Shown here: positions 10,674 through 64,000 of the stretch, piece by piece
Numbering within the stretch: the stretch's first letter is position 1
Layout: each line of letters opens with the position of its first letter
Assembly (NCBI GenBank): GCA_964016885.1
Contig: OZ024742.1
Location: 327,918,001 to 327,982,000, forward strand
Direction of reading: 5' to 3'
From: Eledone cirrhosa
Taxonomy: Eukaryota
DNA length: 64,000 nucleotides
Program-made: the position numbers and the translations under genes
The notes under the pieces: model-generated
Database searches by the model: none
Told to the model about the DNA's origin: nothing
What the model saw: only the letters and a program-made list of their open reading frames with translations

Positions 10674-11230
10674 CAGTTCGCGTTACAAAGTTCTTCAAAC
10701 AAAGGGAGGGGGCTCTCAGGTTGCTTTTTCATATATGAGTGACGTTTGGTTGGTTGATGCAGTCACGTGAATGCACATCAGCTTTCGCGCCAGTTTGTGT
10801 TTGAATTTCTTTTTACTTTAAAAACAGTGGCTCACGAAGGCTTTTTTAAATAAATGTAATTTGATTGGTTATAAAGGAAATTATGACTGCATCAACCAAC
10901 CAAACTTCACTCATATATGAAAAAAACAACCTGAGCCCCTCCCCCTTTGTTTGAAGAACTTTGTAACGCGAACTGGCGCAAAATTTATTATACTTATTCA
11001 CCAACCAAATTACTTCTCTAAAAAGCTGGCATTTCGAGCCACTTTTTTCCATATAAAACAAGTAACATTCAAAGACCAACCAGATGTGAGAAAAACCACA
11101 GAAAGTCCATCTCAATTCTACTTTTGAAAAGCAGACGAACTGTGAAACCGGTAAAGGAACTAAATAAATATATATTTAAAAAAAAAAAGACTCCAGTTGC
11201 ATTTTCGATTTCATCTTCTTTCCTTATATA
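10674..11230 (+). mobile_element. Solo 3' pseudo-LTR of the Neptune-type PLE family, with inverted 5' segment
   Basis: About 10905-11230 matches 62925-63250. 10674-10764 is an inverted copy of 10884-10974. Confidence 0.85.
11121..11156 (+). ncRNA. Minimal type-I HHR motif, U3-A8 core variant
   Basis: CTT-TTGAAAA-GCAG acgaa CTGT-GAAA-CCGG-TA-AAG. Confidence 0.65.
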
Positions 11231-13145
11231 GATACAGTATATGTGTATGTGTGTGTGTGAGAGAGAGAGAGACAGAGAGAGTGTGTGAGTGTGTGAGTGT
11301 GTGGGTGTGGGTATGTGAACGTATGCGTGAGTGTGAGTGTGTGTGGGGGGTGCTCATTAATAAAAATAAATTAGAATTCCAAATTTTATATATCAAAGAT
11401 ATACATTCTGTTATTAAACTTTTAACAGTCTAATTAACCTCATTGTACAACCACTTTCCACTCTGGCAAGTATTGGACGGGTTTTAACAGTCCGAGACCA
11501 GACATATGGGAGTGACCACATCTTGCTCATACATTACATATTTGGCTTGGTTTCTATGGCTGGATGCCCTTCCTAACATACTTACTTTGGAGTGTATTAT
11601 TTTTACGATACCAGTACAACCAATTTACACAGTTGACTAGGTGCATTCTATCACCGTAGTCTCTGATCTCTCACCACACTTACTTTTATTGTCTCACTGC
11701 TTGTACTGGTGGGTATGTTTTTTTGTATTAATGCATATCATCAACCAGCTCTGCCCTGCGTTATCTCTTTGTCGGGTTCAGTATCTTAATATCATATTTT
11801 ACAACTTCGTCTCATGTTTTCCTTGATTTTCCATTTCAAGCGTTTGGCACATTTTTAACACGAGTCTCGCTCATCTTTTGTATCACATGTCTATATCAGT
11901 ACAATGGTCTCTCTTATACAGTATATTCAAATAACGTATTCTCTCAACTCCATTGTGCTTTGTTGTTCACATTCATTAATACTGCACATCCAGTGAAGCA
12001 ACAGCTTCACTGGATTGCTTACGTAGAAAAATTTTGATGATATCAAATACAATCTATTGTCTCTAAAGTTGATAAAATTTGATAAAATTTGCCACAGTAA
12101 GGATAAATACTTGTTATTAAAAATGTAGTTCATGTTGTCAAAGGGATAACATTAAAAATCCTTGCAGAGGGCACAAATAAATCGCTACGGTCGTCGCTGG
12201 TGGAGCCCCTGCTGAAGGACCCAGTCTAATTGCTCCCTTTGCCCCCCCCCTCTCCCCATAAAATCCGGCTCTGTTTTCTATTACTGACTCTAGTAGCCGG
12301 AAGACTTCCTTTCATCTTTACCCCCTGATGTTCACACAAAACACGCTAATTTTTAAAAATCACATAATCATTTCTAATTTTGTTTTTGTTTACCAGCTTT
12401 CATATATTTCAAATTAATTCACATATGCAAACACACTAACACACATACATACAAAGGAACACAAAGAAATACGCATATAAATAAATATGTATATACAGTA
12501 TATGTATATATATATATATATATATATATATATATATATGTGTGTGTGTGTATGTGTGTGTGTGTGTGTGTGTCTGTATACATGTGTGTGTGTATACATG
12601 TGTGTGTGTATATATATATATATAAAATACCATATCTAGGATACTATTTGTTAAATAGTTTTAATTTATAAATTCCAAGTTTACAGTTTTTCTGAACATG
12701 CTTTACATTTTTTTCATCTAAAGGAAGTAGATGTAATTTTCAGTAACAAAATGACAACAAAAATATCAGTGTGGAAAGACTTTATGCTCTCTCTGTATAT
12801 ATATATATATATATATATATATATATATATATATATATATATATATATATACATGCAACGTTTTTCGAAACATTTACTTGTGCGTTCACAGATTGATTTT
12901 TTTATTTTTAGAAGACCCCCGTTAAGGGTGAAAGCAGTGATTCTTTGCTTAAACTTTAATCTGTTATTTTAATAAATATATATATATACATACATACATA
13001 CATACATATATATATATATATATATATATATATATATATATATATATATATATATATATATGCAAAAGTTTTATTTAAATTGTTGGGATACAACAAGGAA
13101 ATATTTTTATAACTGGTATAAAGCACTCGACAAATATTTGGAGTA

Positions 13146-13985
13146 GATATACGATATTAATAAATGGAAACTATATTTATAAAACCATATTTATTTCATT
13201 ATATATATTTCAAGGATACCAAGTTACATTATGGTATGCCTTCATCAGACAAAATACAATATATAACAGTTTTATAAATAGACATTGACGTAACCCTTTA
13301 AAAATTGAGTGTGTATATATATATATTGATGTACCTTTGCCTATGTGTATGTAATATGCGATAGATAATCTCTCTAGCAATATATATATTTTATAATGTT
13401 AAAATTCCAATTTTTAATATATTGATCTCAATTTTAAACTAAATATCTAATCATAATTAAACAATGTGTAATTTCTCATATTATATATCTATATTCCATT
13501 CATGAATATTAATATTTCTAATTTTATTTATGCTTTTCATCCCAATTGTTAACTCAACTTAATATGACATAACTTAAGGTTTTCGTTCTCTCCCCCCTCT
13601 CTCTATCTCTATATATCTCTCTCTGGATTTTTTCTCTGTCTGATGGTTTGATATCTCCCCGTTATTTTTCCTCTGTTCTCTTTTCTTTATGCTTTCTTCT
13701 TTTTCTTTATCTATCTCTCCCTTTCTTTTCTCCACGTTTCTCTCTCTCTCTCTCTCTCCATCTGTTTACTTACTCTTAACACTATGACTTACTAAAGTAA
13801 ACAAATCACTATCCTGATGGCCTCCAAAAGCAACGGTCAATTTTTAAAGGGTTACGTCAATGTCTATTTATAAAACTGTTATATATTGTATTTTGTCTGA
13901 TGAAGGCATACTATAATGTAACTTGGTATCCTTGAAATATATATGGTTTTATAAATATAGTTTCCATTTATTAATATCGTATATA
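13146..13985. mobile_element. PLE-type non-coding remnant with ~160-bp terminal inverted arms between (TA)n tracts
   Basis: 13146-13308 is the reverse complement of 13837-13985 apart from one indel. Both arms carry an HHR core. Confidence 0.8.
13192..13256 (-). ncRNA. Type-I HHR motif
   Basis: TATTTTGT-CTGATGA-AGGcATACCA..TGGTATCCT-T-GAAA-TATATA-TA-ATGAAATA. Helix I is 8 bp with two G-U pairs and helix III is the palindrome ATATATAT. The second copy at 13897-13945 (+) lacks the helix I 3' strand. Confidence 0.7.
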
Positions 13986-62474: not shown

Positions 62475-63139
62475 AGGAATCATTTTCCTACACACACACA
62501 CACACACACACACACACACACACACACACACACACACACACACACACACACACATAACAGCCATATACACACATACACAACTCCCTCCCCCATTTCTACT
62601 AATAGAATCATCTTCCAATACACACAGACACAAGCACACAAAATTGCTTTATTTCAATAGAAAATCTGAATTCTGACACCCCAGCGAACTAACCATATTC
62701 ACTGAACCAGAACAATTATCTCATCCCATTTCTCTTGACCATTATCTTTTGCTTGTCATAAAATTCTCTAAAAAGGCTACAGAATAGGTTTCCAAATAAG
62801 GGCGCGAAATTTAATGAAAACTTGTTCACATGACAGCCATAATTTTATGTATAACCAATCAAATTACATTTATAAAAAAAAAGCCTTCGTGAGCCCCTTT
62901 TTTAAGTAAAAAGAAATTCAAACACTCATATATGAAAAAACAACCTGAGCCCTCCCCCTCCCTTGTTTGAAGAACTTTGTAACGCGAACTGGCGCGAAAT
63001 TTATTATAATTATTGACCAACCAATCAAATTACTTCTCTAAAAACCTGGCGTTTCGAGCCACTTTTTTCCATATAAAACAAGTAATATTCAAAGACCAAC
63101 CAGATGTGAGAAAAACCACAGCCCTCCATCTCAATTCTA

Positions 63140-63175
63140 CTTTTGAAAAGCAGAAGAACTGCGAAACCGGTAAAG
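63140..63175 (+). ncRNA. Minimal type-I HHR motif, U3-A8 core variant
   Basis: CTT-TTGAAAA-GCAG aagaa CTGC-GAAA-CCGG-TA-AAG. Confidence 0.72.
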
Positions 63176-64000
63176 GAACCAAATAAATATATATATTTTT
63201 TTAAAAATAAGACTCCAGTTGCATTTTCGATTTCATCTTTTTTTCTTTATATATATATATATATATATATATATATATATGTGTGTGTGTGTGTGTGTGT
63301 GTGTGTGTGTGTGTGTGTGTGTGTGTAAACGGTAAATAGAAATAACAACACAATCGGAACAGTATATGGAAGGTATATATTAGGTTAACGCTTGATATTG
63401 CAGGAAGAAGGTATTAACGTTTTGGACGCTAGTCCTTCATCAGAAGTAAGAATGAGAAATAAGACACACACACACACACACACACACACATATATATATA
63501 TATATATATATATATATATATATATATATATATATATATATATATATATATATATATATTAGATTATAGCATGACGTGCTCCGCAAGGTTCCTGGCGGAA
63601 GATAAAGTGAAATATAAAAAGTAGAATGATAGACGAAAGTAAGAAACGGAAAAAAAGAGAACTTCATCAGAGGACAGCATTTGTGTATTTAGATAGATAT
63701 TTTGTATATATATATATATCTGTGTGTATATATATATATATTGTTATACTTTGGGAGGGTCATGTTGCCAATAAGAAACACATGCACCAGCTTTCACTCC
63801 AATTTATTATAAATTAAAAAAAAAATTTATAAATTTCTGCTTGGTTGGTTGTTTCCACAACCAGACAGCTGTTCATATATTGTCAGAACAAAGGGGAGGC
63901 ACAAAACAAAAAAAAGAATCCCCAGTCACTGAAGAGGTCACAGAATGTGTGACGAAAGAACTTTGACAATATATGAACAACCGTCCGGTTGTGGAACCAA

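Follow-up and report, generated by a model that had tools for sequence, protein, structure and literature searches.

Several described systems come close to the DNA analysed here. Type-I hammerhead ribozymes (HHRs) are known from the pseudo-long terminal repeats (pLTRs) of Penelope-like elements (PLEs), where they have a short helix I, a palindromic helix III and a U3-A8 variant of the core, and where they occur in many families per genome, mostly as single motifs of truncated elements and also as opposite-strand pairs 100-700 bp apart (Cervera & de la Pena 2014, PMC4209133). The Hydra clade of PLEs combines HHR-bearing pLTRs and (TA)n targets with a C-terminal endonuclease (EN) and the motifs RWK, DKT, CxCx5C, CxxC and CxH, without CCHH (Craig et al. 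2021, PMC8557442). Metazoan non-LTR retrozymes lack an open reading frame (ORF), occur as dimers to pentamers of a repeat unit that contains a single type-I HHR, and have been proposed to originate from PLE pLTRs (Cervera & de la Pena 2020, PMC7229834; Li et al. 2026, bioRxiv 10.64898/2026.07.22.740005). The Anolis Poseidon element PAc uses two internal start sites of reverse transcriptase (RT) downstream of its HHR and cuts both strands of AT-rich targets (Frangieh et al. 2024, PMC11167929). These features recur in a 64-kb window of the Eledone cirrhosa genome (GCA_964016885.1, contig OZ024742.1, positions 327,918,001 to 327,982,000), by which we mean the whole stretch of 64,000 nucleotides, and in which a first-pass annotation had noted 13 hammerhead motifs. 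We hypothesize, with considerable confidence, that these motifs are type-I HHRs in PLE pLTRs, and that they are so numerous because the copying of each insertion starts just 3' of the HHR and usually stops soon afterwards; the carriers would be mostly Hydra-clade elements and some Neptune/Nematis-type elements, together with ORF-less derivatives. The arrangement is a known one, and so is the kind of element: earlier publications describe HHRs in pLTRs, truncated copies that stand alone, pairs on opposite strands, the U3-A8 core, Hydra elements targeted to TA and the tail at one end. It is the scale that is unusual.

At 12 of the 13 sites a complete type-I motif, with the core C/U-UGANG/A-A...GAAA...UH, three helices and an open helix I, begins within 6 nt of the coordinate listed in the first-pass annotation. 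The thirteenth, at 24502, breaks off at the cleavage position and is without the 3' strand of helix I, which 12 of 15 aligned members of its family (family I) retain. In family I, three copies break off there; considered as separate cleavage events, they were rejected, since they have a common flank and so represent one event. A strict type-I descriptor gave seven matches in the window, where 60 shuffles averaged 0.05-0.12. Our first two descriptors were blind to a long helix II; the final, relaxed descriptor permits a helix II of up to 130 nt as well as U3-A8, applies a mismatch penalty of 1 point and a palindrome bonus of 2 points, and has its cut-off at a score of >=13. It recovered 17 window motifs, against a mean of 0.22 and a maximum of 2 in 100 block-wise dinucleotide shuffles. 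The motifs at 53590, 56762 and 27754 pass once a long helix II is permitted, and with helix-II domains of 99, 95 and 51 nt, respectively, they do not fit the earlier description of all the motifs as minimal. Additional HHR copies lie at 11124, 13897, 28197, 41257, 48370 and 63929. Rfam at its gathering thresholds gave no match and recovered none of the window hammerheads; at E<=1 the scan was dominated by microsatellite matches to microRNA models, and no hammerhead was among the matches listed (150 of 263).

Clustering at 80% identity over 75% of the length placed the 13 sites in 13 separate clusters, which we label A-M for this analysis. The families had been called unrelated, which the clusters bear out except that most of helix I is common to 13248 and 57540, and the start of helix II to 28447 and 46852. 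Each family is dispersed in the genome (89-2773 first-look candidates per family), and identity within families ranges from identical copies in C, for which 42 matches in a genome search had the full score and were 100% identical, down to about 80% in J. The minus strand holds 8 of the 13 sites. In 8 of the 13 window copies, and in 10 of the 13 family majorities, helix III is perfectly palindromic, in agreement with the first-pass annotation, and would be suited to dimer cleavage. A tract of (TA)5 or longer lies at most 224 nt downstream of 10 of the 12 complete motifs; the two others, at 27534 and 41148, have no such tract.

The hammerhead structure is under selection. In the B superfamily, the one that our covariation test covered, 95.9% of the cells in 23 diverged sequences are paired, with 47 double changes; none of 500 shuffles reaches the observed count, seven of nine helix-II pairs covary, and controls in which the partner strand was slid are 37-52% paired. 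Compensatory changes are thus found in the stems, and they are found also in the 3-8 pair of the core: among 597 distinct motifs in the fetched loci, positions 3 and 8 are C-G in 507, U-A in 80 and mismatched in 10. Monomeric helix III is unstable in all 12 window motifs (0 to +6 kcal/mol), and the seven palindromic helices III among them form self-duplexes with computed energies of -1.7 to -10 kcal/mol. The combination of an unstable monomer with a palindromic helix III is what is expected of dimer-type HHRs (PMC4209133).

Turning to the carriers, we observed a PLE ORF upstream of the HHR and on the same strand for 8 of the 13 families, five of them apparently of the Hydra clade and three of Neptune/Nematis type. 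We stress that the loci examined were the best-scoring 15-30 of each search, from hundreds to thousands of candidates, so that the fractions that follow are not random samples. Linkage to Hydra-clade ORFs was seen in 18/25 loci for G, 5/20 for H, 4/25 for C and 7/15 for L; family B is linked in L231 and L236, and in L231 a Hydra RT-EN ORF is flanked by two HHRs of this family, 4263 bp apart. Family C is represented in L441 by an uninterrupted ORF of 894 aa, 1.2 kb upstream of the HHR, with RWK, DKT, CxCx5C, CxxC and CxH. The motif set of the clade, in which CxxC and CxH lie around a conserved E and N and CCHH is absent, is present in both L441 and L231, and it is on these motifs that we predict membership of the Hydra clade; HHR-bearing pLTRs (tandems in L231 and L245) and insertion at (TA)n are in keeping with it. 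The L441 endonuclease gave 58,434 first-look candidates, and the 150 that were scored are 95-100% identical. Pfam did not recognise the Hydra ORFs, and no intact helper ORF lies within the window. As a separate observation, L442 (G000:C28:119676800-119684800) holds a 7.7-kb inverted family-C insertion that is bounded on each side by an HHR; one arm encodes a full ORF of 893 aa, and the second 772 aa.

Linkage to Neptune/Nematis-type ORFs was seen in 12/30 loci for A and 5/25 for F, and in L312, L320 and L327 for D. The PLE linked to family D has a GIY-YIG domain at its C terminus and a CX4CxxC linker; the general form of this arrangement, with CX2-5CxxC, is present both for A (window 62050-62470) and for D (L320). 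The Pfam match to GIY-YIG in these elements has E=2e-4, below the Pfam cut-off, and F is assigned by the similarity of its ORF to the family A element, so the label Neptune/Nematis-type for A, D and F is a probable one, based on motifs and similarity, under which the two clades are not told apart. The first-pass annotation had named Neptune/Nematis proteins as the driver; the linked enzymes do appear to be PLE enzymes, but the Hydra clade, which it had missed, is the main one among the linked families (5/8 against 3/8). To our knowledge the Hydra clade is known only from sequence, and the intact and very young element in L441 is a ready substrate for in vitro work.

The published account of the Hydra clade gives a small number of further families, generally <3 kb, and lists one octopus family, Hydra-1_Obim, in its File S1 (PMC8557442). 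The present genome differs in having at least five HHR-defined Hydra families in one window, a B unit of ~4.3 kb with a long 3' untranslated region, ORFs that are intact, young copies identical to one another, and EN candidates in the tens of thousands.

Three of the 13 families are ORF-less, retrozyme-like tandem units of 420-700 bp: E, with a unit of 422 bp in dimers and trimers; K, with a unit of 457/467 bp in head-to-tail arrays that contain 4-5 HHRs; and M, with a unit of about 700 bp, found mainly as 1.05-1.25-mers of the window's subfamily. In these three, successive non-coding units of a tandem each carry an HHR, as is characteristic of retrozymes; A, B, C, D, F, G, H and L do not have this build, being the ends of coding PLEs. 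We found no ORF for family I in 40 loci, upstream walking included, nor for family J in 15 loci. A further tandem retrozyme-like family was noticed in L346:62-1306, with five HHRs at a spacing of 311 bp.

To estimate abundance, we drew sixty evenly spaced 10-kb stretches from 19 large contigs of the 3.0-Gb assembly, in which the final descriptor found 58 motifs against 1.85 expected (20 shuffles). The density of 0.97 motifs per 10 kb (bootstrap 0.63-1.33) corresponds to a likely genome total of about 2.9e5 HHR motifs (1.9-4.0e5). The window is ~2.7 times denser than the genome mean, and the figure of more than one motif per 5 kb given in the first-pass annotation does not extend to the genome, where it is one per 10 kb. 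The 58 motifs fall into 31 clusters (Chao1 about 60; 103 at 90% identity), and the motifs of all loci analysed up to that point into 69; 34 of the 58 have a perfectly palindromic helix III. Printed HHR counts are 126,247 in axolotl, >6,000 in 16 families in a coral and about 5,000 in mussel (PMC7229834), about 9,000 in Xenopus and 4,000 in coelacanth (PMC4209133), and 235, by Rfam, in the giant squid (PMC6962438). Our estimate is more than twice the largest printed count that we found, a comparison that is indicative only because the descriptors differ, ours being the looser. The motifs also differ from those of PMC4209133 in structure: helix III is here mostly 6-10 nt long and not missing, and helix II measures 46-116 nt in 16 of the sampled motifs (<=20 nt in 20). 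The main text of a recent octopus repeat annotation (PMC13282606) contains neither 'ribozyme' nor 'hammerhead', and in the open-access literature we found no cephalopod HHR count of such scale and no account of PLE HHRs with a long helix II. Some of the families may already be held in supplements or in Repbase or Dfam entries. A genome of 3 Gb with about one hammerhead per 10 kb, undetected by Rfam, offers dozens of natural variants with which to test whether PLE hammerheads cut, as dimers or with protein help.

The insertions follow a regular pattern. A (TA)5 or longer tract lies within 200 nt downstream of 46 of 55 sampled motifs (three of the 58 were too near the end of a stretch and were left out), against 13.9% of control positions. 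In each of eight families tested there are two fixed 3' ends downstream of the ribozyme, a short one 43-81 nt and a long one 137-226 nt past the cleavage site; the tail between them measures 65-166 nt, compared with 30-40 nt in the published Hydra elements (PMC8557442), and in full-length B it is the start of the sequence leading into the next ORF, which parallels the two internal RT starts of PAc (PMC11167929). A third of the motifs (164/496) have an inverted arm upstream. Among 91 two-arm inverted insertions, de-duplicated and with both ends at (TA)n, 89 combine a short with a long end, two have two short ends and none has two long ends, where independence would predict 50% mixed (P about 1e-24); in family K the combination is found in 10/10. 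The arm that reaches further 5' is the short-end arm in 35 cases and the long-end arm in 17, the arms being equal or extending beyond the reference in 37. This pairing explains the tail at one end that has long been noted, and it is a sharp genomic constraint on PLE integration; we did not find it stated in the open-access literature. The near-fixed use of one start of each kind differs from PAc, for which in vitro start-site use showed no strand difference (PMC11167929). Overall the insertions show the 5' truncation, partial tandems, inverted truncated arm and one-end tail of PLE insertion units. With tail-only queries, 5' starts did not cluster at the cleavage site, 2/30 copies of C and 1/30 of K beginning within -3 to +5 of it. 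As a side observation, among the family C copies retrieved in this way (L381-L410) 10/30 stop 158-170 nt 5' of the cleavage site, just on the 5' side of an 8-bp hairpin, which is possibly an RT pause or a transcript start. Fold-back junctions at natural hairpins were rejected as a general rule, as they were seen in 9 of 77 cases only, 8 of these in family C.

A mechanism compatible with the observed PLE linkage, TA flank, pair of 3' ends, variable 5' truncation, inversion and pairing rule would begin with a cut by the RT/GIY-YIG protein in each of the two strands within (TA)n. Of the cut ends, one would prime at the short RNA site and its partner at the long one, and both cDNAs would stop early and be joined through a few matching bases. 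With both start sites located shortly 3' of the HHR, the motif is retained by insertions of even very small size, and the density is therefore explained without any cleavage; given that copy starts show no excess at the cleavage site, the abundance is best understood as a side effect of PLE insertion with 5' truncation and not as driven by the ribozyme. The short-and-long end pairing likely records how PLEs copy themselves, and the same PLE enzymes likely mobilise E, K and M as non-autonomous passengers. The ribozyme itself likely serves to cut tandem or read-through PLE transcripts, slowly and either as a dimer or with help from protein, and would be maintained by selection in active PLE lineages; most genomic copies, being single or on opposite strands, would be inert. 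There are precedents among PLEs for the single motifs from truncated elements, the opposite-strand pairs and the U3-A8 core (PMC4209133) and for Hydra elements with TA targets and a one-end tail (PMC8557442), the PAc HHR cut only with protein and was dispensable for insertion in vitro (PMC11167929), and one of nine Xenopus retrozyme dimers cleaved (bioRxiv 10.64898/2026.07.22.740005).

Several points weigh against this interpretation. The mismatch penalty and palindrome bonus of the descriptor somewhat favour the 3/8 and palindrome counts, and related sequences can beat column shuffles without any structure, yet the slid-partner control stayed well below the observed pairing. Linkage was measured on best-scoring loci and not on random draws; for 5 of the 13 families no ORF was seen in the 15-50 loci examined per family, and two of these, I and J, are left without an assigned parent. 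Self-cleavage of the window hammerheads after H17 is predicted from their form. A strict pairing of start sites would not have been foreseen from PAc, which showed no strand preference in vitro (PMC11167929), and inverted insertions could also arise by a fold-back route from a single cDNA.

The first-pass annotation had envisaged a ribozyme-based RNA mobilome, in which the cassettes would spread as self-cleaved, circularised RNAs through rolling reverse transcription and ribozyme activity would drive their abundance. We consider this improbable for the genome as a whole, where most cassettes are the 3' ends of coding PLEs, either inverted or truncated on the 5' side. E, K and M do share the build of non-LTR retrozymes, with ORF-less units in partial or full tandems and the multi-HHR arrays of K, and circular RNAs of such elements have been shown in coral, mussel and axolotl (PMC7229834); for these three families the retrozyme route may well hold, although we would put it at a little short of an even chance. 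Eight of the 13 families, however, end coding PLEs, most copies are solo or inverted, the 3' ends of eight families lie 43-226 nt past the cleavage site and not at it, and we saw no footprint of cleavage in the insertion ends. Even K has PLE tails and the two-end inverted signature.

Neither host use nor coincidence accounts better for the motifs. At about one per 10 kb many would have to sit in introns, and a few, such as those of clusters 14 and 19, have a stable monomeric helix III, as might suit host-domesticated cis-regulators that cut host transcripts; but all the motifs lie inside dispersed repeat families with mobile-element ends, and the covariation lies between subfamilies and so reflects selection at the level of the element, which makes domestication very unlikely. 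Chance matches in AT-rich, repeat-rich DNA have a negligible probability, having already been ruled out by the shuffles: the relaxed descriptor yields about 1.85 false matches per 600 kb, and a few single-member clusters are probably false, but the excess in window and sample, the conservation within families and the covariation are not of this origin. The observation made in the first-pass annotation is confirmed, and its interpretation is supported in part, namely for the type-I form, the many families, the targeting of (TA)n, PLE enzymes as the driver and the palindromic helix III.

Beyond the reading of the motifs as HHRs of truncated PLE ends, we tentatively put forward a wider proposal, which we think somewhat less probable than not: that this genome is the richest known store of HHRs (about 3e5 motifs, 60-100+ families), derived from a still-active Hydra-clade radiation and including an undescribed class with a helix II of 50-116 nt, and that integration proceeds by asymmetric, coordinated double priming, in which one RT dimer would use a different RNA start site at each end of the double-strand cut, a mode general to endonuclease-bearing PLEs.

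Table 1. Features of the window. Assignments to PLE clades are predictions; positions are those of the window.
Feature	Position	Strand	Remarks
HHR family B, Hydra PLE pLTR	13192..13256	-	descriptor; linked locus L231
Second, degenerate family B copy	13897	+	inverted relative to the 13192..13256 copy
HHR family I, cut at cleavage position	24500..24553	-	no ORF found
HHR family J, right arm of ~140-nt fold-back remnant	27485..27546	-	no ORF found; old, ~80% identity
HHR family K, 51-nt helix II	27754..27834	-	ORF-less 457/467-bp unit
Inverted family C insertion with two arms, flanked by (TA)n tracts	28003..28545		HHRs 28447(+), 28197(-); left, long end; right, short end
HHR family F, smallest form	41117..41152	-	Neptune-like ORF pieces upstream in 5/25 loci
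HHR family D	46813..46857	-	within fold-back insertion 46653-47086
Related family D copy	63925-63968	+	
Family E, ORF-less 422-bp unit, partial tandem and inverted arm	47357..48563	+	HHRs 47946, 48370
HHR family L, 99-nt helix II	53590..53725	+	Hydra EN upstream in 7/15 loci
5'-truncated Hydra-clade endonuclease ORF	54441..55283	+	CxCx5C linker, CxxC, CxH, no CCHH
HHR family G, U3-A8 core	55577..55611	+	300 nt 3' of Hydra EN
Family M, ORF-less ~700-bp unit, 134-bp terminal redundancy	56590..57424	-	
Family M HHR, 95-nt helix II	56762-56883	-	
HHR family H, 3' end of truncated Hydra element	57478..57548	-	
Decayed Hydra thumb/EN fragments	58800..59790	-	upstream of HHR H
Broken Neptune/Nematis-type PLE ORF: RT, CX4CxxC linker, GIY-YIG	60193..62470	+	frameshifts, stops
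HHR family A, U3-A8 core	63140..63175	+	about 670 nt downstream of the 60193..62470 ORF
Further family A copies	11121-11156; 41257		
Fourteenth HHR family	56230-56424; 48640-48839; 25653-25832		full form in L103
TA-flanked ~200-bp fold-back family	48866-49086; 23482-23704; 43812-44016; 12918-12975		
TA-flanked pair with 5' half of HHR core	56009-56150; 63562-63703		
Short interspersed element (SINE)	53167-53360; 1534-1727; 26747-26894; 28772-28952		
Long interspersed element (LINE)	32159-39300	-	ORF1 zinc knuckle, endonuclease, RT, zf-RVT
Adjoining satellites, then TGG repeats	3820-8900		89-bp and 29-bp units (118 copies of 29-bp)

Other repeats of the window stand beside the 13 families. A fourteenth HHR family has a U3-A8 core and a 6-bp helix III with a 7-nt loop; in 43 of 44 matches the 5' core is absent and only the 3' half is present, the copies inspected begin in the helix-II loop with a sharp 5' stop, many are fold-backs with a short and a long end, and the 600-kb random sample contains 15 matches. 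The ~200-bp fold-back family, with 125 matches in the loci and 23 in the random sample and no HHR detected, may be the end of an HHR-less PLE. The TA-flanked pair carries the 5' half of an HHR core without a matching GAAA and has six matches in the loci.

The SINE, which we take to be tRNA-like, is very abundant (232 matches in the loci, 77 in the random sample). The LINE, presumably L1/Tx1-like with an endonuclease of APE type, was considered as a helper and rejected; it is without an HHR, and its 3' part is duplicated at 78% identity. One retroelement protein of the window has named relatives from Argonauta hians.

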